Shown here: positions 12,640 through 33,104 of the stretch, piece by piece | How positions within the stretch are numbered: position 1 is the stretch's first letter | Layout: each line of letters begins with the position of its first letter | The notes under the pieces: model-generated | Seen by the model: the letters and a program-made list of their open reading frames with translations, nothing else | The model's database searches: none | What the model was told of the DNA's origin: nothing | Program-made: the position numbers and the translations under genes | UHGV virus genome: UHGV-0392077 | Origin: a virus | DNA length: 38,618 nucleotides | Reading direction: 5' to 3' (one strand)

Positions 12640-12970
12640 ATCAGCAGCAGAGCGCAAAGCCGCTCAGAGAGCCAGACAAGCTGCATCTGGTGTGCGTAAG
12701 CTGGAGATTGTGCTTGATGCTCAGGAAATTGAAATGCTGGAGCGTAACTGTGCCACGCGTCGCCCCGGGCATGCGCCTTACGAATTTGGTGAGTATATAG
12801 CGTTACTGATCCGCCAGGATGATGCACGCGTGCGCGGGCGTATAAAATCGATCAGCAGAAAACGTTGCGGTAAGTGCGGCGAGAGAGTTCCAGTTAATTC
12901 ATGCCCGTGTAATGGTGACTCGCAATGCTGGGTGACTAAAGGCTGGCATGAAACGAAATTAATAGTGTGA
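12632..12970 (+). CDS. hypothetical DNA-binding-like protein with C-terminal Cys cluster; candidate late regulator
   Basis: Basic N-terminus AKSAAERKAAQRARQAASGVRKLEIVLDAQEIEMLE and C-terminal C-G-K-C ... C-P-C-N-G; last gene before the late-operon junction. Function inferred from position only. Confidence 0.4.
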   Translation: MAKSAAERKAAQRARQAASGVRKLEIVLDAQEIEMLERNCATRRPGHAPYEFGEYIALLIRQDDARVRGRIKSISRKRCGKCGERVPVNSCPCNGDSQCWVTKGWHETKLIV

Positions 12971-12978
12971 CATGTCAC
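12967..12978. repeat. perfect 12-bp palindrome GTGACATGTCAC (copy 1 of 3)
   Basis: Exact string; contains the TGA stop of the upstream gene; followed by GAAGGTGTTAT. Confidence 0.9.
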
Positions 12979-12987
12979 GAAGGTGTT

Positions 12988-13200
12988 ATGCCAAAAATAC
13001 GCTACGACCTTGAAGATATGAGAGATAACTCAGCAAATTTTCCGAAAGAGGTTAAATTTCTCATGCATAAGTATGGTTGCGCCAGGAGGGATATAGTTAT
13101 CGACAGTCAGCACCCTTGCGGCGAGGATGTAATTTTCATTCGCGGTAAATGGGAAGGGTATCTTGACGAGAGTTTTTACGATGAATTTGATGGACTTTGA
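12988..13200 (+). CDS. hypothetical small protein (70 aa)
   Basis: ATG 12988 with AAGGTG upstream; could alternatively be part of a late-operon leader. Confidence 0.35.
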   Translation: MPKIRYDLEDMRDNSANFPKEVKFLMHKYGCARRDIVIDSQHPCGEDVIFIRGKWEGYLDESFYDEFDGL

Positions 13201-13205
13201 ATACT

Positions 13206-13231
13206 GCCGCCAACTATGGCGGCTTTATTTT
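13206..13231 (+). terminator. rho-independent terminator immediately upstream of the terminase genes
   Basis: GCCGCC-AACTAT-GGCGGC followed by TTTATTTT. Confidence 0.6.
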
Positions 13232-13242
13232 GCATGGTACTA

Positions 13243-13257
13243 TTACCACAACGGTAA
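13243..13257. promoter_or_regulatory. operator-like palindrome TTACC-acaac-GGTAA (plus imperfect TTACC-acggt-GGTTA at 13261-13275)
   Basis: Between the terminator and the terminase small-subunit start. Confidence 0.5.
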
Positions 13258-13274
13258 CAATTACCACGGTGGTT

Positions 13275-13871
13275 ATGATGCCTGCTGAACCTAAAACCTA
13301 TAAACGCAAATCAACGCAATTTAAGCCGCTCACAGCAATGCAGGAGGCTTATTGCCAGTCATACATCAAAACGCCTGAAAACCAGACTCAGGCAGCGATT
13401 AACGCAGGATTCTCCCCAAATACAGCGGCAGTTAAAGCCAGTGTCATGATGCGCGATGAACGCATTCAAAAACGGATTGCCGAGCTGATGGAAGAGCGCA
13501 ACAAACGAATGCGCGTCAGTGCCGATTACGTTCTCATGCGCCTGGTGGAGATCGACCAGATGGACGTGATTGATATCCTCAACGACGATGGGAGCCTTAA
13601 GCCAATCCGCGAGTGGCCGAAAATCTGGCGCACTACGCTTAGTGGCTTTGATCTGTCATCGACCATCATGAACATGAACGAGGATTCGATAGAGACAATC
13701 CTCAAAAAAATTAAATGGCCTGACAAGGTGAAGAACCTCGAACTGATTGGTAAGCACGTCGACGTCAACGCATTCAAAGAACGCCTGGATGTTAATGTGA
13801 ATGTGACAATTGCTGATCGCATAGCGGCAGCCAGGAAGCGACTCAAAGAACGTCAGGATGGTAATCAGTGA
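13275..13871 (+). CDS. terS: terminase small subunit
   Basis: LTAMQEAYCQSYIKTPENQTQAAINAGFSPNTAAVKASVMMRDERIQKRIAELMEER matches the HTH-containing small-terminase pattern (Terminase_2/P27-like, as recalled). Start moved to ATG 13275 because the ORF-track N-terminus translates the terminator and operator. Confidence 0.7.
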   Translation: MMPAEPKTYKRKSTQFKPLTAMQEAYCQSYIKTPENQTQAAINAGFSPNTAAVKASVMMRDERIQKRIAELMEERNKRMRVSADYVLMRLVEIDQMDVIDILNDDGSLKPIREWPKIWRTTLSGFDLSSTIMNMNEDSIETILKKIKWPDKVKNLELIGKHVDVNAFKERLDVNVNVTIADRIAAARKRLKERQDGNQ

Positions 13872-15343
13872 CAGATACAGCGTTATCTCCTGAAGAGCAG
13901 TTGATCGAGGATATTGCAGGGTTCACTCACGATCCGCTTGGCTATGCCCTCTATGCGTTCCCGTGGGGGGAAGAGGGGACTGAACTGGCACATGCCACCG
14001 GCCCACGTCAGTGGCAGGCTGATGCGTTCCGAGAGATACGTGATCACCTGCAGAATCCAGAGACGCGCTATCAGCCGCTTATGCTGGCACGCGCTTCTGG
14101 TCACGGTATTGGTAAATCCGCATTCATCTCAATGCTGATCAACTGGGGCATGTCCACTTGCGAGGATTGTAAGGTCGTGGTGACCGCCAACACCGACAAC
14201 CAGCTACGAACGAAGACCTGGCCGGAAATTATCAAGTGGTCAAACCTTGCTATCACGAAAGACTGGTTTACCTGTACCGCTACCGCGATGTACAGCAATG
14301 ACCCTGGGCACGACAAGCGGTGGCGAGCTGACGCAATCCCCTGGTCTGAGCACAACACTGAGGCATTCGCCGGACTACACAACGAGCGCAAACGCATCAT
14401 CGTGGTATTCGATGAAGCGTCGAATATTGCCGATCTTGTGTGGGAGGTAGCAGAGGGTGCGTTGACGGACGAAGACACCGAAATCATCTGGGTGGCGTTC
14501 GGGAACCCGACGCGTAACACCGGGCGTTTCCGTGAATGTTTCCGCAAGTACAAACACCGCTGGAAGTGTGCGCAGATTGACAGCCGGACGGTGGAAGGCA
14601 CTAACAAACAGCAGTTGCAGAAATGGGTTGATGACTACGGGGAAGACAGCGACTTCGTTAAAATCCGTGTGCGCGGCATATTCCCGGATGCATCTGAATT
14701 GCAGTTTATCCCTACCGGTCTTACTGATGAGGCAATGAAACGGGTGGTAACCGCTGCGCAGGTTGCACATGCTCCGGTGATAATCGGCGTTGACCCGGCA
14801 TACTCCGGTGTTGATGACGCGGTGATATACCTGCGGCAGGGGCTGCACAGTAAGGTGCTGTGGACTGGTAACAAGACCACCGACGATCTGATTATGGCGA
14901 AGCGCATCGCTGACTTTGAAGACCAGTATCAGGCTGACGCGGTATTCATCGACTTCGGTTACGGAACCGGTTTGAAGTCAATCGGTGATGGCTGGGGACG
15001 TACATGGCAACTTGTTCCGTTCGGTGGCGCGTCTACTGACCCGCAGATGCTCAACAAGCGTGGGGAGATGTTCAACTCATGTAAGACATGGCTGAGGCTG
15101 GGCGGCATGCTGGATGACCAGGAAACTGCAGACGACCTGTCGGCGGCAGAGTACAAAGTTCGAGTGGACGGTAAAATCGTTATCGAACCGAAGGAAGATA
15201 TCAAAGAGCGACTTGGGCGTTCACCTGGTAAAGGCGATGCGCTACTGCTGACGTTTGCGTTCCCTGTGTCAAAGCGTCTGCTAATTCCCGGGCAGCAGAA
15301 CCAGCAAGGCAAGGCCATCACAGATTACGATCCCTATGCTTAA
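13868..15343 (+). CDS. terL: terminase large subunit
   Basis: 491 aa; GTG 13868 overlaps the terS stop (GTGA). Walker-A-like ASGHGIGKSA and VVFDEASNI (Walker-B-like); size and position typical. Confidence 0.8.
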   Translation: MTDTALSPEEQLIEDIAGFTHDPLGYALYAFPWGEEGTELAHATGPRQWQADAFREIRDHLQNPETRYQPLMLARASGHGIGKSAFISMLINWGMSTCEDCKVVVTANTDNQLRTKTWPEIIKWSNLAITKDWFTCTATAMYSNDPGHDKRWRADAIPWSEHNTEAFAGLHNERKRIIVVFDEASNIADLVWEVAEGALTDEDTEIIWVAFGNPTRNTGRFRECFRKYKHRWKCAQIDSRTVEGTNKQQLQKWVDDYGEDSDFVKIRVRGIFPDASELQFIPTGLTDEAMKRVVTAAQVAHAPVIIGVDPAYSGVDDAVIYLRQGLHSKVLWTGNKTTDDLIMAKRIADFEDQYQADAVFIDFGYGTGLKSIGDGWGRTWQLVPFGGASTDPQMLNKRGEMFNSCKTWLRLGGMLDDQETADDLSAAEYKVRVDGKIVIEPKEDIKERLGRSPGKGDALLLTFAFPVSKRLLIPGQQNQQGKAITDYDPYA

Positions 15344-15370
15344 TCCGTTGGAGGGGATAATGCTGCTGAT

Positions 15371-15420
15371 ATCCTCTGATGAGGATAAAACAAAGCCAGC
15401 TCATCGGCTGGCTGTTTGTG
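15371..15420. terminator. bidirectional terminator region between terL (+) and the minus-strand moron gene
   Basis: Two adjacent hairpins (ATCCTC-TGAT-GAGGAT; AGCCAGC-TCATCG-GCTGGCT) with T-rich runs on both strands. Confidence 0.45.
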
Positions 15421-15429
15421 ACATGTCAC
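15418..15429. repeat. perfect 12-bp palindrome GTGACATGTCAC (copy 2 of 3)
   Basis: Exact string, followed by GGTGTTATT; abuts the terminator hairpin and lies 5 nt beyond the stop of gene 15434..15808. Confidence 0.9.
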
Positions 15430-15433
15430 GGTG

Positions 15434-15808
15434 TTATTGCTCGCTTAACTTCTGCTTCAGCAAGTAACCTTCAAGTATCCAGATTTTGTTTACAGCATTC
15501 TGCCGGGCAATCTTCCGACCAATTTCCGCATCAAAGTTTTCCGGGCTTGCACAGGCGCTCTCTCCGGTGACGGTGAAGCCATTCTTCAGTACCAATACGC
15601 AGAAAGTGAGAAGGTGCAGAGCATCAGGGGTGGCTTCAACATAAGGCTCCGGATTATAAATAAGGTCATCTTCTTTAGCCTGGTGGTCACCCTGCGCAGC
15701 AGTGAAAAAATGCTCACTGCAAATGAGGCCTTCAATTTTCTCAGGTGTTACACGCGGTGCCGTTTTGCCTTTCTCAACGATTTCTTTTTCGATTTGCTGG
15801 TCGTTCAT
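15434..15808 (-). CDS. hypothetical protein (124 aa), moron gene antisense to the late operon
   Basis: ATG 15808 preceded by AAGGTGAG; transcribed opposite to the flanking terminase and portal genes and bracketed by hairpins. No confidently recognised motif. Confidence 0.55.
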   Translation of the reverse strand: MNDQQIEKEIVEKGKTAPRVTPEKIEGLICSEHFFTAAQGDHQAKEDDLIYNPEPYVEATPDALHLLTFCVLVLKNGFTVTGESACASPENFDAEIGRKIARQNAVNKIWILEGYLLKQKLSEQ

Positions 15809-15819
15809 AATCTCACCTT

Positions 15820-15843
15820 AAAAAAATGCCCGGCGAACCGGGC
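15820..15843 (-). terminator. hairpin plus T-run immediately upstream of the moron gene (possible attenuator)
   Basis: Minus strand GCCCGG-TTCG-CCGGGC followed by ATTTTTTT, only about 12 nt before the gene's ATG. Confidence 0.35.
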
Positions 15844-15919
15844 GAACTGGAAGCAATGAGTTATGCCTTCCGTGGCTGTACTGGTTTACAGCATGAAGTC
15901 ATCGCAATGGCGTCCTGCT

Positions 15920-15963
15920 GTAAAAAGGGCGGTGATAGTCCTTCAAGGGAAACCATCACCGCC
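15920..15963 (-). terminator. candidate terminator downstream of the tRNA
   Basis: 9-bp stem GGCGGTGAT/ATCACCGCC with an 18-nt loop, followed on the minus strand by CTTTTTA. The loop is large, so confidence is low. Confidence 0.3.
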
Positions 15964-16006
15964 AAGCACCTGGAACTTCTGGCATCACGGTCCTTAGGCG
16001 TGATTC

Positions 16007-16083
16007 TGGCGTGGCATGCAGGATTCGAACCTGCGACCAACCGCTTAGAAGGCGGTTGCTCTGTCCAGCTGAGCTAATGCCAC
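16007..16083 (-). tRNA. tRNA-Arg(UCU): tRNA-Arg (anticodon UCU), argU-like, CCA encoded
   Basis: Minus strand folds by hand into a cloverleaf: acceptor GTGGCAT/ATGCCAC, D-arm GCTC...GAGC, anticodon stem ACCGC/GCGGT with loop CTTCTAA (anticodon TCT), T-arm GCAGG-TTCGAAT-CCTGC, discriminator G plus CCA. Resembles E. coli argU as recalled. Confidence 0.8.
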
Positions 16084-16405
16084 AACGCTGAGAGCACTTA
16101 GCCTGTTAAGGCACCACACTTTGTCGCGGCTCCATAAATGCTCTCATCGTTGTACCCTCGTCTCTTCCGAGGTGTCACACCGAATCGCCGGGATGGTGAA
16201 TCCCCGTGCGCGGAATAAAACCGCTCGACTTGCACATTCCGGCTACCTGGTTCGTTTGCCCGAGCAAGGGAGGGTGCCCCTTAAACGTATCCAGACCGCT
16301 ATCGGCGCATGTGCCATACGCCGTACTGCTCAAAATAAAAGCTCACTCCACCTGTTCAATTTAACGACAAGCCAGTCAGGTTAGTAACCGGAATGAACTC
16401 TTTGG

Positions 16406-16420
16406 TTACCTGAAAGGTAA
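16406..16420. promoter_or_regulatory. operator-like palindrome TTACC-tgaaa-GGTAA
   Basis: In the non-coding region upstream of the portal operon; the flanking GGTAATAATTTG is repeated again at about 16478. Confidence 0.5.
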
Positions 16421-16510
16421 TAATTTGTGCGTTAAATGTCAACTATCTAAAATAAATAAATCATATGTGGTTAAATTGGTAATAATTTGATTGCGTACGG
16501 AGTCATTGAT

Positions 16511-16717
16511 ATGTGCATGGGTAGCTCACCATCAGTGCCTGCAACACCAGAAGTTCAGGCAGCACCACAGGAGCAGGATGCCGCCGTTGTTGATGCCCGC
16601 GATGAAGAAACTCGTCGCCGTCGCGCTGCTGCTGGTCGTAGTTCTACGCTGCTTACCGGTTCTCAGGGCGACACATCAACCGCTAATACCAGCGGTAAAA
16701 CGCTGCTTGGTCAGTAA
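16511..16717 (+). CDS. small hypothetical protein (68 aa), Ala/Gln/Thr-rich
   Basis: ATG 16511 preceded by CGGAGTCATTGA, the same 12-mer that precedes the portal ATG; low-complexity sequence, so coding status is uncertain. Confidence 0.3.
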   Translation: MCMGSSPSVPATPEVQAAPQEQDAAVVDARDEETRRRRAAAGRSSTLLTGSQGDTSTANTSGKTLLGQ

Positions 16718-16731
16718 CCGGAGTCATTGAA

Positions 16732-18411
16732 ATGGCGGAAACAACTAAAGAGCGATTGAACAAACAGTTCGCACAACTTGAAAGCGAGCGTCAGTCGTTC
16801 GAGCCGCACTGGCGCGAGTTGAGTGATTACATCAACCCACGTGGTTCCCGCTTTCTGACTTCTGAGGTCAACCGTAACGATCGACGCAATACACGCATTA
16901 TTGATTCGACCGGGACTATGGCGGCGCGCACTCTCGCCAGCGGCATGATGTCAGGCATCACAAGCCCCGCGCGTCCGTGGTTTCGCCTGGCTACGCCAGA
17001 TCCTGAAATGATGGATTATGGCCCTGTTAAGTTGTGGCTTGAGGCGGTGCAGAACCGCATGAACGATATGTTCAATAAGTCGAATCTCTATCAGTCGCTG
17101 CCGCAGTTATACGGAAGCCTCGGCACATACAGCACTGGTGCAATGGCGGTACTGGAGGATGACGATGACATCATTCGCACAATGCCATTCCCGATAGGCA
17201 GTTACTACCTGGCTAACTCACCTCGTGGCAGTGTGGACACCTGTTTTCGCAAGTTCTCTATGACTGTTCGTCAGCTTGTTCAGGAGTTCGGGCTAAATAA
17301 CGTCAGCGAATCCGTAAAAAGCATGTGGGAAAGCGGCACCTACGAGAAGTGGATTGAAGTGATGCATTCGGTTTACCCGAACATTGACCGCGATACATCG
17401 AAGCTGGATAGCAAGAACAAGCCATTCAAATCGGTTTATTACGAGGTTGGTGGCGATAACGACAAGTTGTTGCGTGAGTCCGGATTCGATGAGTTTCCAA
17501 TTATGGCTCCGCGCTGGGAAGTTAACGGCGAAGATGTTTATGGATCATCATGCCCGGGTATGCTGGCGCTTGGACCTGTTAAGGCATTGCAGCTTCTCCA
17601 GAAGCGCAAGTCGCAGTTGATTGATAAAGCCACCAATCCGCCGATGGTTGCTCCGACTTCCCTCAAGAATCAGCGCGCCTCCCTTCTTCCTGGCGACATC
17701 ACGTATATCGATCAGATTACTGGTCAGGATGGCTTCAGGCCTGCTTATCTGGTTAACCCCAGTACAGCAGATTTGGTGGCAGACATTCAGGACACTCGTC
17801 AAATCATTAACAGCGCCTACTTTGTCGATCTGTTCATGATGTTGCAGAACATCAATACCCGCTCGATGCCTGTTGAAGCAGTGATCGAAATGAAAGAAGA
17901 AAAACTTCTGATGTTGGGGCCGGTTCTGGAGCGTCTGAACGACGAATGTCTTAATCCTCTCATTGACCGCGCTTTCTCGATGATGGTGCGTAAAAACATG
18001 CTGCCGCCACCGCCTGACGCGATGGAAGGTATGCCCCTGAAGGTCGAATACATTTCCGTCATGGCTCAGGCGCAGAAGTCTATCGGCCTGTCCAGTCTGG
18101 CGTCTACGGTCAACTTCATTGGTCAACTTGCGCAAGCGAAACCAGAAGCTCTCGACAAACTCAACGTTGATCAGGCGATCGATGCATTCGCTGATATGTC
18201 CGGAGTGTCTCCAACCGTCATTGTTCCGCAGGAACAGGTTGAGCAGGCTCGCCAGCAACGGGCACAGCAACAACAGCAGCAACAAATGATGGCGATGGGG
18301 ATGGCGGCGGCACAGGGTGCCAAGACGCTAAGCGAAGCTAAAACTTCGGATCCGAGTGTTTTGTCAGCTATGGCGAATGCAGTTAGTGGTCAGGGTGGGC
18401 AATCACAATGA
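16732..18411 (+). CDS. portal protein
   Basis: 559 aa directly downstream of the terminase module; N-terminus ...FEPHWRELSDYINPRGSRF...PARPWFRL; the C-terminus is Gln/Ala-rich. Size and position typical of podovirus portal proteins. Confidence 0.8.
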   Translation: MAETTKERLNKQFAQLESERQSFEPHWRELSDYINPRGSRFLTSEVNRNDRRNTRIIDSTGTMAARTLASGMMSGITSPARPWFRLATPDPEMMDYGPVKLWLEAVQNRMNDMFNKSNLYQSLPQLYGSLGTYSTGAMAVLEDDDDIIRTMPFPIGSYYLANSPRGSVDTCFRKFSMTVRQLVQEFGLNNVSESVKSMWESGTYEKWIEVMHSVYPNIDRDTSKLDSKNKPFKSVYYEVGGDNDKLLRESGFDEFPIMAPRWEVNGEDVYGSSCPGMLALGPVKALQLLQKRKSQLIDKATNPPMVAPTSLKNQRASLLPGDITYIDQITGQDGFRPAYLVNPSTADLVADIQDTRQIINSAYFVDLFMMLQNINTRSMPVEAVIEMKEEKLLMLGPVLERLNDECLNPLIDRAFSMMVRKNMLPPPPDAMEGMPLKVEYISVMAQAQKSIGLSSLASTVNFIGQLAQAKPEALDKLNVDQAIDAFADMSGVSPTVIVPQEQVEQARQQRAQQQQQQQMMAMGMAAAQGAKTLSEAKTSDPSVLSAMANAVSGQGGQSQ

Positions 18412-18704
18412 CAGATTACGAAGACGATCAACTGAAAGAAGAAAACGCCCGTAAGCAACGTGACATGGCGCAGCGTGAAATTGATGACATTCGCTTTGTC
18501 ATGAGCAGTGAACAGGGGCGTCGCGTTGTCTGGTCGGTGCTGGAGAAAGGCCGTGTGTTTTCCGCTATCTCACCGATGGACGCTATGGCAATGGCATTTA
18601 ATGAGGGGCAACGCAATCTGGCGCTGGAACTGTTTCAGCGCGTTATGGCGCATTGCCCTGAACAGTATTTGAAGATGGCCAAAGAGGCCAGTGAACAGGA
18701 GTGA
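18408..18704 (+). CDS. hypothetical head-assembly protein
   Basis: ATG 18408 overlaps the portal stop (ATGA); 98 aa, charged. Confidence 0.45.
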   Translation: MTDYEDDQLKEENARKQRDMAQREIDDIRFVMSSEQGRRVVWSVLEKGRVFSAISPMDAMAMAFNEGQRNLALELFQRVMAHCPEQYLKMAKEASEQE

Positions 18705-18706
18705 TC

Positions 18707-19402
18707 ATGAATTTATTTGAGCGTTTGCTGTATCGCCGTCTTTGCAATGAGCAACCAGTCGATGGTGGAACAGCTCCGGCTGCGTCAGAACCGTCAGCGC
18801 CTGCAGGTGATAACCCTGCTCCAGTTGGTGATCCATCACAACAGGAAGGTGATAAGCCACAACCTGTTGCTGATGGCGATAAACCTGCTGATGACAAAAA
18901 GCCTGAAAACGATAAGCAGGATGAAAAAAAGGACGGCGATAAACCAGAGGGTGCGCCTGAGAAGTACGAGTTTCAGGCTGCCGAAGGCGTAGAGCTGGAT
19001 ACAGAAGCGTTGAAGGAATTCGAGCCGGTGGCGCGAGAACTTAACCTGACCAACGAGCAAGCGCAAAAGTTGGTTGATGCTTATCCGAAGATTCTGGCAG
19101 GTGTTCAGCAGCGCCAGGCAGAAGCCTGGCAGAAAACAACCGAGCAGTGGGCTGCGGATGTAAAAGCTGACAAAGAAATCGGTGGCGACAAGTTGATTTC
19201 TAACCTTAGCACCGCACAGCGTGCGCTTGACCAGTTCGGAACACCTGAACTCAAAGAATATCTGAACACCACCGGGATGGGTAATCACCCTGATCTGGTC
19301 AAAACGTTCGTGAAAATCGGAAAGGCGATGTCTGAAGATGGCATGGTCACCGGTGATAATGAAGGCCAGCGTAGTGCGGCCGAAGTGCTCTATGGCAAAT
19401 AA
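18707..19402 (+). CDS. scaffolding protein (putative)
   Basis: ATG 18707, 6 nt after AGGAG; highly acidic, Pro/Asp/Lys-rich low-complexity N-terminus and helical C-terminus; sits between portal and capsid genes. Confidence 0.55.
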   Translation: MNLFERLLYRRLCNEQPVDGGTAPAASEPSAPAGDNPAPVGDPSQQEGDKPQPVADGDKPADDKKPENDKQDEKKDGDKPEGAPEKYEFQAAEGVELDTEALKEFEPVARELNLTNEQAQKLVDAYPKILAGVQQRQAEAWQKTTEQWAADVKADKEIGGDKLISNLSTAQRALDQFGTPELKEYLNTTGMGNHPDLVKTFVKIGKAMSEDGMVTGDNEGQRSAAEVLYGK

Positions 19403-19416
19403 GAGAGGAAATGACA

Positions 19417-20403
19417 ATGGCTGTTAAAGGCTTAACTGCGCTAACGCTGGCTGACTGGGGTAAGCGCGTCGATCCAAACGGGAAAGTCGATAAGATTATC
19501 GAGCTTCTCGGTCAAACTAACCCGATCCTTCAGGATATGCCTTTTGTCGAAGGGAACCTTCCTACCGGACACCGAACCACCATTCGTTCTGGTTTACCTT
19601 CAGCTACCTGGCGTTTGCTGAACTATGGCGTACAGCCAAGCAAATCAACCACAGTGCAGGTAACCGATTCCGTTGGCATGCTGGAAACCTATGCTGAAGT
19701 AGATAAGTCACTGGCTGATCTGAACGGTAATACCGCCGAATTCCGCCTGTCTGAAGACCGCGCATTTATTGAAGCGATGAATCAGCAGATGGCGCAGACG
19801 CTGTTTTATGGTGATTCCAGCGTTAACCCTCAGCAGTTTATGGGACTGTCCTCCCGCTATTCCAGCCTGTCTGCGGGTAATGCTCAGAACATCATTGATG
19901 CTGGTGGCACGGGTACAGATAACACCTCAATCTGGTTAGTGGTGTGGGGCGAAAACACCGTGCATGGCATCTTCCCGAAAGGGCAGAAGGCTGGCATCCA
20001 GATGGAAGATAAAGGCCAGGTGACACTGGAAGATGCTAATGGCGGCAAGTACGAAGGCTATCGCACCCATTACAAATGGGATAACGGACTTGCTCTGCGT
20101 GACTGGCGTTATGTTGTTCGCATTGCAAACATCCATGTCAGCAATCTTTCAGAACCTTCCTCTGCCGCAAATATTGCGAAGTTGATGGTTAAAGCACTGC
20201 ATCGCATTCCAAACCGTGGCATGGGCCGCCCGGTGTTCTACATGAACCGCACTGTAGGCCAGGCTCTTGATCTGCAGTCTCTGGAGAAAACATCTCTGGC
20301 GATTAGCGTAAAAGAGACTGAAGGCGAGTGGTGGACGTCATTCCGTGGTGTACCAATCCGTGAAACTGATGCGCTTCTGGAAACAGAAGCCCGCGTGGTG
20401 TAA
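19417..20403 (+). CDS. major capsid protein
   Basis: About 328 aa following the scaffold gene; ATG 19417 has better SD spacing than ATG 19411. The call rests on position and size. Confidence 0.65.
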   Translation: MAVKGLTALTLADWGKRVDPNGKVDKIIELLGQTNPILQDMPFVEGNLPTGHRTTIRSGLPSATWRLLNYGVQPSKSTTVQVTDSVGMLETYAEVDKSLADLNGNTAEFRLSEDRAFIEAMNQQMAQTLFYGDSSVNPQQFMGLSSRYSSLSAGNAQNIIDAGGTGTDNTSIWLVVWGENTVHGIFPKGQKAGIQMEDKGQVTLEDANGGKYEGYRTHYKWDNGLALRDWRYVVRIANIHVSNLSEPSSAANIAKLMVKALHRIPNRGMGRPVFYMNRTVGQALDLQSLEKTSLAISVKETEGEWWTSFRGVPIRETDALLETEARVV

Positions 20404-20454
20404 CGCCTGTTATTAACCTGTGGGTCGTAACAGACCCACTAATGGAGAAAGAAG

Positions 20455-25691: not shown

Positions 25692-25703
25692 GGGGATAAT
25701 AAG

Positions 25704-28217
25704 ATGCCAGTTGTACCAACAACATCGGGCCGCCAGGTTCAAAGCAGAGGGATTTCGACGCAGGGATTCTCATCGTTTCAGACACCAAATGTCGGTGATG
25801 TACTTGGCGATGTTGCAGAGCAATATGCAGGTATTATTGCGCAGGCAAAACAGCGTGCGAATGTTGCTATGGCTCAGGATGCTTCTCTTAGCTTAAGCCA
25901 GATAAGCAGCGATCTGCTGAATAACCCTGAAACAGGTTTGCTTAACCTGAAAGGGAAAAATGCTATTGGAAAAGGTCAGGAGTATACGCAGCAGTTTGAT
26001 GCCCAGGTCGAGCAACTGGCTATGTCGCTGCCGGATGAACAGGCCCGTAATGCTTTCATGCAGCAGGCACAGCAGCAGCGCATTCAGTTCACTACGCAGG
26101 CCGGGCGGCACGAGATAGGGCAAATTAATGCCTACGAAGAAGGTCAGTTTCAGGCGACGCTGCTGAATAATGGTAAAAATGCCGCAGCATTGTATGGCGA
26201 CAATGCCGCATACGTATTGGCTAATAAGCAAACTTTCCAGCAAATTGAGGATTACGGCATTGCGCATGGCTGGAGCGACGAGCAAATCCAGGCCAAGAAA
26301 ATCGAGTTTAAAGAGAAGGTTGCTGATGCCGCATTGTCCCAGTGGTCGGCAAACAATGCGACCGCATTCATCCAAAGTAATGGCGAGTTAAGTGATACTG
26401 CTGCTGGAGCTCGCCGTGCTGTAGCAGATAGTGACTCTTCCGAGCGTGCCCGTGGCATACGCAACAATAACCCAGGAAATCTCGAATACAGCAAAACTAA
26501 TCCGTGGGTAGGCCAGACCGGTGATGATGGTCGATTTGCTAAATTCGAAACACCTGAACACGGGATTCGTGCATTAGGGCGAAACCTGATGTCGTATCAG
26601 AGGCAGGGTATTGATACCGTCAGCGAGATAATTAATCGCTGGGCACCGCCTACTGATAAAAATGATACTATGTCGTATATCAAAGCAGTGTGCGAACAAC
26701 TTGGCGTTTCTGCTGATGATCCTCTCGATGCATCTAATCCTGATACCCTGAAGGCGCTTTGTGCAGCCATTATCCATCATGAGAACGGTAACCAGCCATA
26801 CAGTGATCAGCAGTTAACTGCTGGTGTCAGTGCAGCACTTGGTTTATCAACAATTCCAACCAACACCAAACGCTATACCGGTAATGCAGCATTCGATGCG
26901 GCATCTCCTGAGGCGCAGGCAAGTTTTATGCGACAGGCGGATCAACTGCGTCGGCAGCAGCAGGCTGAATATAAAACGATGATTGACAGCCAGGTTCGCG
27001 ATGCGACGGCTGCGTATATGCGTGGCGTTGAATTTCCTAACCCACCTGGTGAGGATGATTTTATTGCAGCTTATGGAGTCAGAGAAGGAAACCTGCGATA
27101 TACCGAGTTTAAGAATACGCAGATCGCCGGACAGTATATAGGCTCTTTCCGCAACATGCCGACAAGCAGCATTACAGCATATGTTGAGCAATTACGCCCG
27201 GATACTGGTGATACAGGGGAGGGGTATGCGGCACGCGCAGATCTTTATGACAACGTTGTTTCGGCTGCAAATCAGGTGATAAAGCAGCGGCAGTCGGATC
27301 CTGTGCAGTTCTCTCTTGCCTCCGGACTGGCAAAGCCTATCGACATGAGCAATAAGGATAACTTTGGACAGAGCGTTGCCTTGCGTGCCGCTCAGGTCAG
27401 TGACCTTGCTAAGTCATATGGCACTCCACTGACGTTCTTTTCCAAAGACGAGGCCAATCAGATCGGTGTTTTCTTTCGTGATGCTCCAGTTTCCCAACAG
27501 GCAGCATATCTCGATACCATCAGGCAGAGTACTGGTGGTGGGCAGGTGTATATGTCAGCACTACAGCAGATCAGTGCCAACGCGCCATCTGCTGCCGTTG
27601 CCGGGATACTGATGGATAAGCCTGGTGGTATTTTGGCAGAAAAAAACTGGTTTAATCCGGATGTTTCCGTGTCTCCTGAAACCGCTGCGCAGACAATTCT
27701 TGCTGGCGCGGCGGCTCGTAAAGGTACTGATGATGCGAAAGGTATTCCGATGCCTAAAGATGCTGATCTTCGCCTTGAGTTTTCTGACATGGTGAAGGAT
27801 GCATTTGCTGGTGACGCTCAGGGAGCATCAATGGCATACGAGATCGCAAAGGATTATTACGCTGGTGTGATGGCGAAAAAAGGCGTGGTATCAGGCGAAA
27901 TTGACAATGATGTCTGGAAACAGGCTGTTAACGTAGCTACAGGTGGCGTGCATGACTATAACGGAATGGGGAATGTCCTTTTGCCGTGGGGAATGTCTGC
28001 AGAGCAATTCGATAAGCAGGTTAATCAGGCTTGGAATGAACAAGTTGTCGGCACCGGGATAAAAACACCGCCTGGTCAGTATGGTTTGCAAAGTTACGGC
28101 GATAGTCAGTACCTGGTGAAACTTGGTACTGGTTATCTGCTGAAAGATGATGGTTCTCCTGTTGTTCTTGATCTGACACAGAAGCGTCAGAGATTCTCCG
28201 GAGATATTCCGCAATGA
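25704..28217 (+). CDS. internal virion / ejection protein (837 aa) with an internal globular insert
   Basis: Largely Ala/Gln-rich with a distinct segment (about 26450-26800) RARGIRNNNPGNLEYS...HHENGNQPY. Role inferred from position. Confidence 0.5.
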   Translation: MPVVPTTSGRQVQSRGISTQGFSSFQTPNVGDVLGDVAEQYAGIIAQAKQRANVAMAQDASLSLSQISSDLLNNPETGLLNLKGKNAIGKGQEYTQQFDAQVEQLAMSLPDEQARNAFMQQAQQQRIQFTTQAGRHEIGQINAYEEGQFQATLLNNGKNAAALYGDNAAYVLANKQTFQQIEDYGIAHGWSDEQIQAKKIEFKEKVADAALSQWSANNATAFIQSNGELSDTAAGARRAVADSDSSERARGIRNNNPGNLEYSKTNPWVGQTGDDGRFAKFETPEHGIRALGRNLMSYQRQGIDTVSEIINRWAPPTDKNDTMSYIKAVCEQLGVSADDPLDASNPDTLKALCAAIIHHENGNQPYSDQQLTAGVSAALGLSTIPTNTKRYTGNAAFDAASPEAQASFMRQADQLRRQQQAEYKTMIDSQVRDATAAYMRGVEFPNPPGEDDFIAAYGVREGNLRYTEFKNTQIAGQYIGSFRNMPTSSITAYVEQLRPDTGDTGEGYAARADLYDNVVSAANQVIKQRQSDPVQFSLASGLAKPIDMSNKDNFGQSVALRAAQVSDLAKSYGTPLTFFSKDEANQIGVFFRDAPVSQQAAYLDTIRQSTGGGQVYMSALQQISANAPSAAVAGILMDKPGGILAEKNWFNPDVSVSPETAAQTILAGAAARKGTDDAKGIPMPKDADLRLEFSDMVKDAFAGDAQGASMAYEIAKDYYAGVMAKKGVVSGEIDNDVWKQAVNVATGGVHDYNGMGNVLLPWGMSAEQFDKQVNQAWNEQVVGTGIKTPPGQYGLQSYGDSQYLVKLGTGYLLKDDGSPVVLDLTQKRQRFSGDIPQ

Positions 28218-30016
28218 GTTACTTTGGCCTTAATCCAGTAAACCAGAATCAGCAACTTGACGAAGCAGCATCAAATCCAGCGGGCTTTAACAGCGATGTT
28301 GGTTTTTTCGACAATGCTGCAGGAGCGGCATTGTCTGGTTTGTACTCCGGGCTGGTGGCAAAGCCAGATCAGTTGCTATGGGCAGGGATGGATAAAATCG
28401 TATCCCCGATTGCTCAGTTTGTTAACGAAAACACCTCGTTCAATGACACTTCAGTTTCATACATTGCTGAGCAGAGAAAACTAGCAGAGCAGCAGGTTAA
28501 GCAGCTGACGCCTGATGCCGCGACAACCGGAACCGCCGGGCAGGTTCTTTATGGGTTGTTCGATATGGGCGGGCAGGCTGTTGTCGGTACAACGCTCGGT
28601 GGTCCTGTCGGAGGTGCAGCGGCGGTAACTTCGCTACAGGGTTTTTCTGAGTTTGAACGGCTGACAGCACAGGGTGTTGATTTCAGGACGGCGCAGGAAG
28701 CGGGATTAGTGCAGGGCATTACTGCTGGTGCCGGAACACTGATCCCTATGAGCCTCGGGTTACGTGCTGGTGGTGCGCTGGCGGAAGGTGTGGCGGCTCA
28801 GCTTGCGCGGACGGGTGAGAGTTCAGTGCGACGCGCCGCAGCAACAGCAGTACGTGCAATGCCAGATATTGCCTATGCCGCAGGTACAAATATTGCGTTC
28901 GGTATGGCACAGCGTGGGCTTACTGCAAAAACGCTTCGTGATGGTGGCTATAGCGAAATGGCTAACCAGTATGATGTGTTGGATCGACAGGCAATTGCTA
29001 TTGATGCTGTTCTTGGGGTGGCGTTTGGTGGTGTCGGCAGATTTATTAACTCTCGCGGCGAGTCTACAAACGCACCAAATTTTTCACCAGTTGATATCGA
29101 TGCTGCACTGGCGGCGAATGCCGCTCATCATGCTGAAATTGATATTGCGCCCGGCGTGCCGATCAACGTGCTTTCGCGCAATTCTCACATTCAGGCTCTG
29201 CGAAAAGCTATGTCTGATGTTAGCCAGGGGAGACCTGTAGACGTTGCCAGCATTGTTGAGTCTGCATCTTTCAGTGAAATTCCTGGGCGCAAGAGTCTGC
29301 TGTCTCAGGCAGTTAATGAGGCTCTGTCATCTGTAGATGATGGAGTAACGGCGCGCGCTATAGAAAATCGGTTGCTTGAAGAACAGGCCGCGCAGCTTTT
29401 GCCGCGTGGAGATAGACAGGTTTACCAGTCTGAAATCGCTAATAGCCAACGAATTATTGAAAATCTCACTGAACAGCGTGCACAAATTCTTGCAGAAGAG
29501 CCAACCGGTAGCGGTAAAGCTTTGTCTCGTACTCGATCAGATAAACAGGCCAGACTTCGCGATATTGACCAACGAATCCGGCAGGCACAAGAACGCCTGG
29601 AATTTTCTCGTAACGCGTTGGCACCGCATGAGCCTGGCGGTCAGTTTTTTGAAGCTCGAGCAGAACTGGCTCGGAGACAGCAGGCAGAAAGTGAACTTAA
29701 TGCTCAGGCTGTTTCATTCTATAAAACAGCAGAGGTCAGGACGCCAGGCGAAGTGGCTCCTTTTGAGCCTGATAAAATATTGCAACAGGCAGAACAAAAA
29801 ATGATGGCGGATCAGGCAGGAGATATTGATCTGCGCATAGCTGAAGACTCGCTGCTTGAATCACCTGACATGATAATCACCGTGCTGGATGATGATGGTA
29901 ATCCACAATCGCGCAGCGCGCGTGAAGTACTGGATGAAGCGAACAGGGAAAGTGAGCAGGCAATACAGGATTCCAGCCTGTTTGATGTCGCTGTGGCGTG
30001 TTTCTTGAGAGGTTAA
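28214..30016 (+). CDS. internal virion / ejection protein (600 aa)
   Basis: ATG overlaps the upstream stop; Gly/Ala-rich N-terminal half with hydrophobic stretches. Confidence 0.5.
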   Translation: MSYFGLNPVNQNQQLDEAASNPAGFNSDVGFFDNAAGAALSGLYSGLVAKPDQLLWAGMDKIVSPIAQFVNENTSFNDTSVSYIAEQRKLAEQQVKQLTPDAATTGTAGQVLYGLFDMGGQAVVGTTLGGPVGGAAAVTSLQGFSEFERLTAQGVDFRTAQEAGLVQGITAGAGTLIPMSLGLRAGGALAEGVAAQLARTGESSVRRAAATAVRAMPDIAYAAGTNIAFGMAQRGLTAKTLRDGGYSEMANQYDVLDRQAIAIDAVLGVAFGGVGRFINSRGESTNAPNFSPVDIDAALAANAAHHAEIDIAPGVPINVLSRNSHIQALRKAMSDVSQGRPVDVASIVESASFSEIPGRKSLLSQAVNEALSSVDDGVTARAIENRLLEEQAAQLLPRGDRQVYQSEIANSQRIIENLTEQRAQILAEEPTGSGKALSRTRSDKQARLRDIDQRIRQAQERLEFSRNALAPHEPGGQFFEARAELARRQQAESELNAQAVSFYKTAEVRTPGEVAPFEPDKILQQAEQKMMADQAGDIDLRIAEDSLLESPDMIITVLDDDGNPQSRSAREVLDEANRESEQAIQDSSLFDVAVACFLRG

Positions 30017-30021
30017 ATTAA

Positions 30022-32496
30022 ATGAGACAGGAATGTATACAAGCGGTCCAGCAGGCGGCGCAGCGCACGTTAACGGCGCGAGAAATACAGAACATTGAAG
30101 ACCGCATTTATCGAAATATGCGCTCCATTGCTCGTGATGACCCGATGTCGTGGAGACAACTTTCCGAATCAGAGCGGCTATATCGTGCAGCACAATTGGC
30201 ATCTGAAGAATTACAGCGAGAAGCGGCATTAAAGAAACGTCGTGTGGCCCTCACTATAGCCGCACGTCAGAGATTGGATAAATTTATCAATAGCTATCAA
30301 GGGGCTGATGGGAAACTTGGCGCTCTTAACCGTACTATTGCTTTTAATGCAGACGGTAAATCGAATTTCCTCTCTGTTGAGTCCAGAACAAAAGCCACTC
30401 GTGATTATGCATTGAGTCAATTGCAAGAGGCATTTGAAGCAGTTGATCCTCGCTTTTTTGGCCTGTTTGAAGATGAAGCTGGCGTGCGTGACTTGGTATA
30501 TGAAATGCGAGGGCAAAATACTGGCAATGCTAAAGCAAGAAAAGGTGCTAAGGCGTGGAGAGAAGTGACAGATCTACTGCGCCGCCGGTTTAATGATGCT
30601 GGTGGGGACATTGGCTATCTCGAAAACTGGGGGATCCCTCAACATCATTCTATGGAAAAGGTTGGGGCGGTATCAAAGGATAAGTGGGTTAGCGATGTTA
30701 TAGGTAAGCTGGATCGCAAATATTATATCCGAGCCGATGGACAACTGATGAACGATGCCGAGTTGTCTGCATTTCTTGGAGAGGCTTATAACACGATCGC
30801 TACTGGTGGGCTGAATAAGCTTACTGATACCGGAATGCGAATTTCCGGCGCACGTGCTAACCGTGGTAATGCATCACGACAGATACATTTCAAAGATGCA
30901 GATTCCTATCTGCAATATCAGCAACTTTATGGCGATCGCTCTCTATGGGAAATCATGGTCGGTCACCTGGAAGGTATCAGTAAAGATATTGCACTGGTGG
31001 AAACATATGGCCCAAACCCCGATCATGTTTTCCGCTCCCTTCTTGATCAGGTTAAGGCAGAAACGGCAACAGCTAACCCGAGTAAAACCGGTAAAGTCGA
31101 GCGGCTGGCGAACAACACAGAGAATCTGTACAACTTTATTTCCGGAAAGACACAGCCTGTAGCGAATCCGCACATCGCGCGATGGTCTGACAATATCCGC
31201 AACTGGCTGGTTGCCAGCAGACTCGGATCCGCGTTGCTGTCATCGTTCTCTGATCTTGGAACCATGTATCTGTCTGCGAAGGTTACCAACCTTCCAATGA
31301 ACCAGTTATTCCGCAACCAACTTGAAGCTATGGACCCAACGAACCGTACAGAACTTGCGCGGGCGCGCCGCGCTGGTCTGGCGATGGAATCTCTACTTGG
31401 CAGCGTTAACCGCTGGGCGATGGATAATATGGGGCCGTCAGTGTCTCGTTGGGCGGCGACGGCGGTAATGCGTGCCAGTGGGCTTACAGCATGGTCAGAT
31501 GCGCACAAGCGCGCCTATGGCGTAACCATGATGGGAAGCCTGGGAGAAGTAGTGTCACGGACACCAGACCTTCGTAGCCTCGATGATTCTGATTTTCGTA
31601 TCCTGAAAAGCAAAGGGATTACTGACACAGACTGGAGCGTATGGAAGCTGGCGCAACAGGAGGACTGGGGGAACGGTAATAATACGATGCTGACACCGGA
31701 AAGCATTATGCGTATCCCTGATTCAGCAGTTAAACATCTTGGTGAGCCTGAACGCGTGAAATTTGAGGCAATGCGTAAACTGCTCGGTGCCGTAACTGAA
31801 GAGGTTGATATGGCTGTTATTACACCGGGAGCACGTGAGCAACTGATAACCGGTTCTGGTATTCAGCGTGGAACATGGAAAGGTGAATTAACGAGAAGTG
31901 TTTTCCTGTTTAAATCGTTCCCTATCTCGGTGGTTATGCGTCACTGGTCACGCGCTATGGGTATGCCGTCTGCTGGTGGGCGTGCGGCATATATTGCGAC
32001 GTTTATTGCCAGTACGACCATTCTTGGCGCTTTGTCGCAGCAACTTAACGACCTTGCGTCTGGTCGTAATCCTCGCGAGATGACAGGAGAAGATGCTGCT
32101 AAATTTTGGCTTGGTGCTCTACTGAAAGGTGGTGGTCTTGGCCTTTACGGTGACTTTTTATTGTCAGATCACACTAGGTACGGAAGCGGCGCGCTGGCAT
32201 CGATGCTTGGCCCGGTAGCTGGTCTGGTTGATGACGTAGTGAAGATTGCTCAGGGCATACCGTTAAATGCTGTGGAAGGGAAGAGTGAGCAGACTGGTGG
32301 TGATCTGATTAAGCTGGGGAAAGGTCTGATGCCAGGTGCGAATCTCTGGTACTTGAAGGCGGCTCTCGATCACATGATCTTTAACCAGATGCAGGAGTAT
32401 TTTTCACCAGGCTATTTGCGTAAAATGGAGCAACGTTCGAAGAAAGAGTTTAACCAGACATACTGGTGGCGACCACAGGATGTCACTCCGCAATAA
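30022..32496 (+). CDS. internal virion / ejection protein (824 aa)
   Basis: Long ORF ending the contiguous plus-strand structural block; hydrophobic segments near residues 650-700. Confidence 0.5.
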   Translation: MRQECIQAVQQAAQRTLTAREIQNIEDRIYRNMRSIARDDPMSWRQLSESERLYRAAQLASEELQREAALKKRRVALTIAARQRLDKFINSYQGADGKLGALNRTIAFNADGKSNFLSVESRTKATRDYALSQLQEAFEAVDPRFFGLFEDEAGVRDLVYEMRGQNTGNAKARKGAKAWREVTDLLRRRFNDAGGDIGYLENWGIPQHHSMEKVGAVSKDKWVSDVIGKLDRKYYIRADGQLMNDAELSAFLGEAYNTIATGGLNKLTDTGMRISGARANRGNASRQIHFKDADSYLQYQQLYGDRSLWEIMVGHLEGISKDIALVETYGPNPDHVFRSLLDQVKAETATANPSKTGKVERLANNTENLYNFISGKTQPVANPHIARWSDNIRNWLVASRLGSALLSSFSDLGTMYLSAKVTNLPMNQLFRNQLEAMDPTNRTELARARRAGLAMESLLGSVNRWAMDNMGPSVSRWAATAVMRASGLTAWSDAHKRAYGVTMMGSLGEVVSRTPDLRSLDDSDFRILKSKGITDTDWSVWKLAQQEDWGNGNNTMLTPESIMRIPDSAVKHLGEPERVKFEAMRKLLGAVTEEVDMAVITPGAREQLITGSGIQRGTWKGELTRSVFLFKSFPISVVMRHWSRAMGMPSAGGRAAYIATFIASTTILGALSQQLNDLASGRNPREMTGEDAAKFWLGALLKGGGLGLYGDFLLSDHTRYGSGALASMLGPVAGLVDDVVKIAQGIPLNAVEGKSEQTGGDLIKLGKGLMPGANLWYLKAALDHMIFNQMQEYFSPGYLRKMEQRSKKEFNQTYWWRPQDVTPQ

Positions 32497-32504
32497 AAGG
32501 AGAT

Positions 32505-32630
32505 ATGATGGTTCAAATAACTTTTATTGTACTAATATGTGCAGCGTTTTTATGCTATTCATACATTTTGATAAAAATGGGTTTCAATTGGAACCTCTGT
32601 TGCGTGCAGCGGCATGGTTCGGCTTTGTAG
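32505..32630 (+). CDS. small hydrophobic peptide (about 40 aa), uncertain
   Basis: AAGGAG at 32497-32502 then ATGATG; hand translation MMVQITFIVLICAAFLCYSYILIKMGFNWNLCCVQRHGSAL*. An alternative frame (32480..32668) also encodes a TM segment. Confidence 0.3.
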   Translation: MMVQITFIVLICAAFLCYSYILIKMGFNWNLCCVQRHGSAL

Positions 32631-32715
32631 TATTCGGAATTGTATTGTTCGGAAGAATAATAAAATAACTAGTTAATTTGTGGATTGGTGCTGTTTTTCC
32701 ATGATAGGGGTAATT

Positions 32716-33096
32716 ATGAGAAAAGTATTTTTGATTTTTGGATTTATGCTTCTCGTTGGATGCCAGTCAGCTGCACAGTTTGAAAGAAATATGCTTACGT
32801 GGCGTGGGCAGAGTATAGACGCAATGGTTCAGCAGTGGGGGTATCCTCAGGGAGAGCTTACATCTCCAGATGGAAACAGAGTGTATGTTTACTCAAGCTC
32901 TGGTAGTTATAACGTACCACAAACCACAACGTATAATACTACGTCTAATCTAATTGGTAATACTATATATTCAAACACATATGCAACAACTGATGGCGGT
33001 TATACACTCCATTTCAGTTGCTCTGTTTACGTTGAGTTTGGTGCTGATAAGATTATTAAAAATGTTACATGGCGCGGTAATAATTGCGTTGCGTGA
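32716..33096 (+). CDS. lipoprotein (moron; possible superinfection-exclusion factor)
   Basis: Signal peptide MRKVFLIFGFMLLVGC with lipobox LVG|C; AGGGG 6 nt upstream of ATG 32716; conspicuously AT-rich compared with its flanks. Confidence 0.65.
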   Translation: MRKVFLIFGFMLLVGCQSAAQFERNMLTWRGQSIDAMVQQWGYPQGELTSPDGNRVYVYSSSGSYNVPQTTTYNTTSNLIGNTIYSNTYATTDGGYTLHFSCSVYVEFGADKIIKNVTWRGNNCVA

Positions 33097-33104
33097 CATG
33101 TCAC
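33093..33104. repeat. perfect 12-bp palindrome GTGACATGTCAC (copy 3 of 3)
   Basis: Exact string; contains the TGA stop of the lipoprotein gene and abuts the terminator hairpin. Confidence 0.9.

Follow-up and report, generated by a model that had tools for sequence, protein, structure and literature searches.

What reads a perfect 12-bp palindrome that recurs, letter for letter, at gene ends within one phage genome, and to what effect? The question is raised by the 38,618-nucleotide UHGV virus genome UHGV-0392077, analysed here over its whole length (hereafter the window), which carries GTGACATGTCAC in three exact copies (sites A, B and C; Table 1). The window is a prophage of the epsilon15/phiV10/TL-2011b type, genus Uetakevirus, with about 97% identity to the E. 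coli members of the genus and about 80% DNA identity to Salmonella phage epsilon15. Comparison with relatives and with distant phages, together with structure prediction, indicates that the palindrome is probably the operator of a 112-aa protein with a predicted ribbon-helix-helix (RHH) fold and a zinc ribbon, whose gene ends inside site A.

Copies of the palindrome and their conservation

The original prediction had singled out the three copies as exceeding chance expectation, and the counts bear this out: no match to GTGACATGTCAC was expected, or found, in 100 dinucleotide-preserving shuffles of the window, the single extra match obtained when up to two mismatches were allowed (at 18460, with two mismatches) is at chance level, and no other palindromic 12-mer is repeated within the window. 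Its remark that copies 1 and 3 embed a TGA stop codon at the same position is accurate, the stop occupying nucleotides 2-4 of the 12-mer at both site A and site C, and so is the placement of copies 2 and 3 beside terminator hairpins, at 4 nt (a minus-strand terminator) and 0-1 nt, respectively. A flank shared by copies 1 and 2, ...G(AA)GGTGTTAT, had also been reported; it is real, but it is not conserved among relatives and was rejected as part of the element. At copy 1 it constitutes the ribosome-binding site and ATG of gene 12988..13200, and at copy 2 it includes the reverse-strand TAA stop of the cargo gene. All three window copies have in common a 14-mer, TGTGACATGTCACG (copy 3 on the minus strand), whose flanks reduce to Y...R across relatives and give the symmetric consensus YGTGAC-N2-GTCACR. 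A functional asymmetry of this 14-mer, with T...G directed toward the cargo or away from the hairpin, was considered and rejected, as site C of epsilon15 reads T...A, the orientation to the hairpin is the opposite in locus L098, and position +1 in class B is G, A or T.

Epsilon15 possesses exactly three copies of the 12-mer at homologous places, namely at 39612 (the gp49 stop), 2142 (after the terL hairpin) and 19517 (the gp18 stop, 2 nt ahead of an annotated terminator), and its record bears no annotation on any of them. Relatives were sampled without reference to the motif, through the 112-aa gene for sites A and B and through the upstream tail gene for site C. Site A was exact in 72 of the 76 usable relatives, with one single-base variant and three cases in which the 3' end of the gene had been replaced. 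The exact copy lay just after terL in 48 of the 68 relatives usable for site B, and had been moved downstream by an insertion in three; nine others had a single-base variant and eight lacked the site. Site C was exact in 71 of 78 untruncated relatives and differed by a single base in the remaining seven, being absent from none. Natural single-base variants of the 12-mer are GTGATATGTCAC, GTGACATGCCAC and GTTACATGTCAC, and GTGACATGAGTC is an altered form of GTGACATGTCAC that retains the site A stop codon. The surroundings are far less constrained: in the class B alignment the stems of the site B hairpin vary by compensatory pairs (GCCAGC/GCTGGC vs. GCCCGC/GCGGGC) and loop and linker are variable while the 12-mer stays fixed, and the 20 nt that come next after the sites belong to many unrelated sequence classes. 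Site A is almost never lost, and the comparison of sequences clearly depicts sites B and C as individually dispensable yet under purifying selection. Full-text literature searches for GTGACATGTCAC, for the N15-type GTGACTGGTCAC and for GTGACCAGTCAC returned nothing relevant and no published description was found; the paper on ZX5 makes no mention of the palindrome.

The 112-aa family and its predicted fold

The product of the gene that ends in site A matches PHROG 536, labelled "transcriptional regulator" (2e-54), and corresponds to epsilon15 gp49, annotated there as similar to N15 gp46, and it found no match in Pfam, NCBIfam or PDB sequence searches. Among 1.84 billion representatives the family accounts for 209 clusters at 50% identity. 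A GTGAC-N2-GTCAC site goes with its homologues of 27-45% identity in phages of the N15-like, P2-like, lambdoid, Vibrio and Aeromonas groups, and in most cases it stands at the 3' end of the gene. In N15 (gp46, 34% identity) the site has the form CGTGACTGGTCACG and occurs three times (0.00 expected), one copy overlapping the gp46 stop, and the arrangement is the same in Klebsiella KpLi5 (36%). Of the three sites in Vibrio K303 (30%), two are no more than 3 kb from the homologue; two sites there end exactly 19 nt ahead of a start codon, in one case that of terS. Aeromonas 59.1 (29%) has one site, GTGACCGGTCAC, at the homologue, and in lambdoid contigs of the L106 type (about 87%) the homologue stands in the bet/exo early-left operon and the site follows it. 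A Yersinia P2-like phage and the P0175 subfamily (36-41%) carry instead a cluster of GTGACATGGCAC, GTGACATGTCAC and GTGAC in non-coding DNA, about 0.5 kb downstream of the homologue in the P0175 type and 3.4 kb in the Yersinia phage. The site lies over or just past the stop codon in the P0213 subfamily (33%), and within the last codons, read as Val-Thr-Gly-His, in the P0177 subfamily (43%). When P0213 and P0175 were sampled blind, it was present in 37 of 40 loci, against 0.45 sites expected in 467 kb.

Overlap of the site with the 3' end of the gene was observed in four subfamilies, in a reading frame that differs from one to another, giving a TGA stop in some and Val-Thr-Gly-His in another. 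Since the subfamilies read the site in different frames, what is conserved is the DNA and not the peptide. Copies within one genome agree in the central dinucleotide, which is AT in the window, TG in N15 and mostly AC in K303.

An AlphaFold run on a shallow alignment was not usable (pLDDT 61) and its Foldseek search was meaningless, whereas the AlphaFold2 model built on a 45-sequence family-wide alignment reached a pLDDT of 89.5 and a pTM of 0.66. It consists of a helix (residues 5-19), an extended stretch (20-29), a second helix (30-42) and a long helix (52-74), followed by a four-cysteine ribbon (75-99) and a C-terminal helix (100-108). On this model the 112-aa protein is an RHH DNA-binding fold joined to a zinc ribbon, its strand-helix-helix core being of the kind that forms a two-stranded ribbon on dimerisation. 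By curated family models it falls outside the RHH families: the window protein has no Pfam RHH match, and single family members gave sub-threshold Pfam matches (RHH_5 0.027, RHH_1 0.071, RepB-RCR_reg 0.028). For the C-terminal part, a search of profile A3 against the PDB (query 48-107) returned marginal matches to TraR (E 0.02) and YbiI (E 0.023), and the likeness of the predicted helix-ribbon-helix to these proteins is taken as a lead only. RHH proteins bind short symmetric sites as dimers, and binding of this type fits a palindrome in which two 5-bp arms are invariant and the 2 bp between them are free. Residues R43, R44 and P45 are invariant and, together with the strand at 22-28, are candidates for recognition of GTGAC.

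Several further arrangements of the site were observed. In the P2-like cluster the order is GTGACATGGCAC, 20 nt, GTGACATGTCAC, 24 nt and GTGAC (L291 6600-7020; Yersinia phage vB_YenM_42.18, L124, 11675-11745), between the early-operon terminator and the portal gene and about 240 nt from a GC-rich cos-like sequence. The identical 14-mers CGTGACTGGTCACG of N15 (L125) are at 28550, 33237 and 39269; one is 24 nt upstream of a minus-strand promoter-like TTGACG-N17-TAGAGT in the leader of the antirepressor locus, and the other two are within repA and over the gp46 stop codon. Unrelated environmental viral contigs (L013, L014, L080, L038; L045; L043, L050, L058, L070, L079, L084 and others) also contain the same 14-mer, and in some of them it fills a TTGACA-TATAAT spacer in an operator-like manner; one contig holds two tandem 14-mers 23 bp apart, and in others they lie within GTGACA repeat arrays. 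Another phage lineage (L113, L115, L119) shows a reverse gene stop (TAG), the palindrome, 14 nt and a bidirectional terminator, in this order. In a further lineage (L018, L037, L044, L049, L054, L055 and L103) a gene start is overlapped by the 12-mer (ATG CGT GAC ATG TCA CAG..., MRDMSQ...), and L054 has in addition a regulator homologue of 58% identity 10 kb off and a second site, GTGACCTGTCAC.

Transcription unit ends and cassette borders

The last genes of the early-right operon end in the 112-aa gene and site A, after which come the 70-aa cassette gene, a terminator, terS, terL, a hairpin and site B. The reverse cargo gene and a reverse tRNA-Arg follow, then gp3, the portal gene and the head and tail genes, the lipoprotein cargo gene, site C and its terminator, the reverse membrane-protein and ant-type genes and finally the tailspike gene. 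Three rightward units succeed one another here, i.e., early-right, terS-terL, and gp3 through the tail genes, and each has a site at its 3' end. For the transcript that is terminated, the site comes just before the hairpin at B, at C, and at A in epsilon15, where the terminator is 22 nt away and the equivalent stem-loop is annotated at 39646-39672. No hairpin adjoins copy 1 in the window, where the next terminator lies beyond the 70-codon cassette. Because a U-run is found on the minus strand only, the hairpin by site B is assigned to the reverse-strand gene 15808..15434 as its terminator.

Table 1. Positions of the palindrome sites and of associated features in the window.
Feature	Position	Strand	Remarks
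Site A, GTGACATGTCAC	12967..12978		Exact match; overlaps the TGA stop (12968-12970) of the regulator gene, which ends open reading frame 12629..12970
Site B, GTGACATGTCAC	15418..15429		Exact match; flanked by the post-terL hairpin and by the stop codon of the cargo gene on the reverse strand
Site C, GTGACATGTCAC	33093..33104		Overlaps the TGA stop (33094-33096) of the lipoprotein cargo gene, which ends open reading frame 32680..33096; abuts a terminator
112-aa gene, epsilon15 gp49 / N15 gp46 family, phrog_536	12632..12970	+	Proposed palindrome binder
Site A cassette: 70-aa gene, phrog_1541	12988..13200	+	In about one quarter of relatives
Intrinsic terminator	13206..13223	+	Closes the early-right/regulator unit ahead of terS
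Hairpin 4 nt from site B	15394..15413	-	Scores as a terminator on the minus strand only
Site B cassette: cargo gene, Pfam Phage_gp49_66	15434..15808	-	Replaced by at least 8 other genes in relatives
Site C cassette: lipoprotein gene, phrog_3716	32680..33096	+	Probable start 32716; lipobox LLVGC
Intrinsic terminator	33105..33122	+	Abuts site C after 0-1 nt
ATTACC-N5-GGTAAT copies	933, 5991, 6053, 6765, 9052, 9114, 13242, 13260, 16405, 34013, 35093, 35473		Plus two weaker copies

The original prediction had placed all sites at borders of accessory insertions and had proposed, as a check, that the 12-mer be looked for at indel breakpoints in related genomes; relatives do carry different cassettes there. 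In every class the conserved sequence is on one side of the site, and the opposite side comes in many unrelated types. At least six kinds of sequence follow site A, including the 70-aa gene, the 8-codon deletion remnant to which this gene has shrunk in most relatives, and a gene controlled by a LexA box. Site B is faced by at least nine different reverse-strand genes, each ending a few nt from the site and mostly at TAA-CRCC. Several genes, among them the lipoprotein gene (present in only about 10% of relatives), stand to the left of site C, and beyond its hairpin on the right the sequence is of two types; site and hairpin form an island of about 35 bp conserved between variable flanks. When the window was compared by BLAST with 78 regulator-centred loci, homology stopped at 12980-12989 in 43 loci and resumed at 13180-13189 in 42, and stopped again at 15430-15439 in 22 and resumed at 15800-15829 in 34, so that breakpoints cluster within 10 nt of sites A and B; further breakpoints were found at the terL stop (15340-15349, 7 loci) and inside the 3' end of the regulator gene.

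Since homology breaks about 10 nt from the sites and different cassettes follow, the sites mark the borders of moron cassettes, a pattern confirmed by these alignments, and since breakpoints also occur elsewhere, each site is a preferred junction and not the sole one. The recombination hot-spot that had been proposed holds as a breakpoint pattern, but neither the BLAST breakpoints nor the comparison of relatives gave any sign that the palindrome is a dedicated recombination site. Epsilon15 is annotated with RecE/RecT-type recombinases, and because such recombinases are present and the site-plus-hairpin islands are the sole identity between otherwise differing neighbours, we infer that these islands may serve as short homologies for cassette exchange, which would then be a by-product of their presence.

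Promoters and operators around the sites were also considered. Inverted repeats of the form ATTACC-N5-GGTAAT, annotated as the repressor operator in epsilon15, number 14 in the window against 1.1 expected; they precede terS, the gp3/portal unit and the tailspike gene, each following late unit starting with one, which suggests that the immunity repressor acts directly on each late unit. The palindrome was rejected as an immunity operator of this type, as its sequence is different and these repeats sit at other positions. No plus-strand sigma-70-like promoter was found in 12500-17000. A role of site A as part of a late promoter was likewise rejected: GTGACA is a possible -35 in epsilon15 only and the window has no such promoter, and the strong promoter of some relatives is a LexA-controlled cassette promoter and not a late promoter at site A. 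This last promoter, the near-consensus TTGACT-N17-TATACT, belongs to the cassette after site A in Salmonella/Klebsiella-type relatives (L026 11650-12045; also L041, L066, L077, L090 and L104), which have no terminator ahead of terS; a perfect LexA box, TACTGTTTAAATATACAGTA, overlaps this promoter, so that a gene under SOS control stands right next to the palindrome.

Other observations concern the neighbouring genes. The reverse tRNA-Arg(TCT) at 16007-16083 (-) is followed by minus-strand terminators at 15963-15928 and 15843-15828, the latter ending just 20 nt short of the start codon of the cargo gene. The phiV10-type annotation starts terS at TTG 13197 and would read through the hairpin at 13206-13223 and two operator repeats; an epsilon15-type start at ATG 13275 appears more plausible. 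In the ant-type region, two Rfam matches above the gathering score, to the C4 antisense RNA (34873-34956, -) and the isrK RNA (34981-35057, -), lie side by side, and this region looks like the antisense-RNA immunity (immI) module of P1/N15-like phages.

Possible roles of the site and comparison with known systems

If the palindrome is the operator of the 112-aa protein, a dimer would insert the two-stranded beta-ribbon into the major groove, over the dyad of the palindrome. Gene and site would constitute one closely linked module: site A lies over the stop codon of the gene itself, and two more sites stand at the 3' ends of the next two rightward units, 1-5 nt from a terminator hairpin and, at B and C, on the side from which the terminated transcript arrives. 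The most probable task of the bound protein there would be to control the fate of RNA polymerase at unit boundaries, by either read-through or insulation. RHH proteins are nearly all repressors, with which blocking or insulation would be in line; read-through would be favoured by the location of the gene at the position of lambda Q, by the lack of a plus-strand sigma-70 promoter in 12500-17000 and by the extra domain. We regard this transcriptional role as a whole as a tentative, though serious, possibility. The original prediction had proposed a regulator site tied to termination: the binding-site part is strongly supported by comparison, through the linkage to an RHH gene and the co-occurrence with its homologues, and the tie to termination is one of position.

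A more specific version, which we consider rather unlikely, would have a MatP-like RHH reader fused to a TraR-like zinc ribbon and parked at transcription unit ends. Such a DNA-tethered factor would either be passed on to the RNA polymerase that arrives or obstruct it, and would decide whether early and moron transcripts stop or continue into the late genes; the protein would then be a regulator of elongation or termination, not a promoter-bound repressor, and the invariant sites would be the points at which morons are swapped.

Several observations weigh against the operator and its transcriptional role. The case for the operator is built wholly on comparison and structure prediction, and the palindrome occurs, sometimes in multiple copies, in viral contigs with no homologue in the few kb examined. 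The sites have no consistent relation to promoters, and some of them lie in coding DNA (N15 repA, the gene end of the P0177 type), which makes a poor fit to a transcriptional role. SPN1S-type relatives have no terminator after site A, and site B precedes a terminator on the minus strand only. Sites B and C are moreover dispensable, as illustrated by the absence of B from 8 of 68 relatives and by the single-base variants at B (nine) and C (seven). The module would in any case be an operator-regulator pair with an unusual placement, at gene 3' ends and terminators and not at promoters.

Some of the same observations would suit a MatP- or centromere-like organiser, in which the protein bridges dispersed sites for replication, packaging or segregation and has no role in transcription. 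Sites are few, widely spaced and singly dispensable in each genome, some are in coding DNA, their half-sites are identical to those of matS, A and B bracket the terminase operon, the P2-like sites are near a cos-like sequence, and the proximity to terminators could reflect the sole non-coding DNA available. Hairpin abutment at 1-5 nt recurs, however, in independent lineages and is tighter than spare non-coding DNA predicts; the spacer is 2 bp and not 3, hhalign against MatP gave a probability of 0.1%, the model has no four-helix bundle and epsilon15-like phages have no ParA-type partner, which leaves an organiser as the main alternative, though an improbable one. Quite unlikely, in our judgement, is that the 12-mer is a mere conserved linker or microhomology at module junctions, read by no protein. 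The coincidence of breakpoints with the sites, the many cargos that abut them and the RecE/RecT-like recombinases of these phages would be explained, but many breakpoints are elsewhere, as at the terL stop, the perfect palindrome is kept across phages of E. coli, Salmonella, Klebsiella and Enterobacter despite flanks of 80% identity, and in N15-like, P2-like, Vibrio and Aeromonas phages it turns up again, with a different central pair of bases, next to distantly related versions of a single gene.

A conserved host gamma-proteobacterial DNA-binding protein (MatP, or one like SlmA or CRP) might instead bind the sites, with an incidental link to the phage gene. Sites are found in phages of several host genera and the half-sites resemble matS; they are also like the half-site of CRP, TGTGA, and the site of SlmA, GTGAGTACTCAC. 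The spacing is nevertheless unlike that of matS (2 vs. 3 bp) and of CRP (N6), 4 of 12 positions differ from the SlmA site, and neither co-occurrence in 37 of 40 loci nor the 3'-end overlap in four subfamilies is expected for a host factor, which leaves this explanation very doubtful. CRP, whose consensus is TGTGA-N6-TCACA, was specifically rejected, as the palindrome reads TGTGA-CATG-TCAC(R), with a spacing of 4 and not 6. Stop codon and terminator enclose the palindrome at B and C, and the start codon that follows is 9-19 nt further on at A, in N15 and in K303; these positions would also be compatible with an RNA element, a small hairpin in the 3' untranslated region (UTR) beside the terminator affecting termination, mRNA stability or translation of the next gene. 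Such an element is highly improbable, since the 12-mer hairpin, at -1.2 kcal/mol (z = 0), is as weak as that of shuffled sequence, and the 12-mer has no Rfam match and is not itself an intrinsic terminator, the true terminators being separate adjacent hairpins; some sites moreover lie in regions not obviously transcribed as UTRs, and ten strict half-site bases around a free centre are the signature of a dimeric DNA-binding protein and not of a stem-loop. The nuclease or methylation target suggested in the original prediction found no supporting evidence and its probability is close to negligible: the palindrome does contain CATG, ACATGT and GTSAC, and epsilon15-type phages encode two methyltransferases, but known restriction-modification sites of 4-8 bp would be frequent and enrichment is seen for the full 12-mer only, the outer half-sites are constant whereas the two central bases change from one phage group to another, and the linked protein has no nuclease domain.

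The adjacent regulator gene, the conservation of the three positions in epsilon15 and the resemblance to matS go beyond what the original prediction contained. An operator for the 112-aa protein would provide a probable DNA target and a fold for a family annotated only as "hypothetical" or "transcriptional regulator" and found in podo-, sipho- and myoviruses whose hosts are enterobacteria, Vibrio and Aeromonas. Uetakevirus genomes gain three previously unannotated cis elements at transcription unit boundaries, and the exact start and end points of moron cassettes in phages of this type would receive a concrete explanation. The identity of the half-sites with matS raises the question of a shared recognition mode, or of cross-binding, between the phage RHH protein and MatP. 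Were it true that the protein acts on elongating polymerase at terminators, this would constitute a new wiring of late expression in phages with no recognisable Q.

Among known systems, a close one by site is matS, a 13-bp sequence, GTGACRNYGTCAC, with a 3-bp spacer (PMC6907758). Its half-sites are the same, whereas the spacer is 2 bp in all phage sites examined (window, epsilon15, N15, K303 and others). GTGAC-N(0-4)-GTCAC with a spacer of another length is absent from the window, epsilon15 and N15, and the one 3-bp-spacer sequence of K303, GTGACACCGTCAC at 19491, does not fit the matS consensus. The location is different as well, at gene ends of phage genomes and not in the host terminus region. 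MatP, the Ter macrodomain organiser of E. coli, consists of a four-helix bundle, an RHH and a coiled coil, whereas the phage protein as modelled has no N-terminal four-helix bundle and carries a C-terminal zinc ribbon; hhalign detected no homology at the sequence level, and the resemblance of fold and site is retained. The centromere sites of N15 SopB, IR1-4, GTGCGACC-N2-GGTCGCAC (PMC7205306), differ from the N15 form of the palindrome and were rejected as its counterpart.

With the RHH repressors of phages and plasmids (Arc and Mnt of P22, CopG, and antitoxins such as MazE, TacA and ParD) the 112-aa protein has in common the predicted fold, the small size, a short symmetric operator, a gene beside its own site and phage-borne expression. 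Their operators overlap promoters upstream of the genes that they regulate, whereas the palindrome overlaps the regulator's own 3' end or stop and abuts terminators, and the phage protein has an extra zinc ribbon and reaches the threshold of no Pfam RHH model. The best PDB profile matches of the C-terminal part are RNA polymerase-binding factors of the TraR/DksA type (F TraR, YbiI), with which it has the motif CxxCG-x2-(L/I)P...G...C in common; the spacing of the second cysteine pair differs and the family gave no match to Pfam zf-dskA_traR.

In gene order there is a parallel with lambda Q, qut and tR', the late antitermination module. As in lambda, the regulator is last in the early-right operon and is followed by a DNA site, an intrinsic terminator (here at 13206-13223) and the packaging and structural genes, and the protein has a zinc-binding region. 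The differences from lambda Q are several: no sigma-70 promoter and no pause element were found by site A of the window, the promoter that follows the site in some relatives carries a LexA box, the protein has no similarity to Q families, copies of the site are far from any late promoter, and N15 has its own Q besides the homologue. T4-type phages have promoter-stem-loop cassettes (PeSL), and mosaic phages have boundary or linker sequences at module junctions; as in these, a short conserved regulatory sequence flanks interchangeable genes and coincides with homology breakpoints. In contrast to them, the core of the element described here is more than a promoter or terminator, being a perfect palindrome of the protein-binding type, tied to one regulator family across unrelated phage groups.

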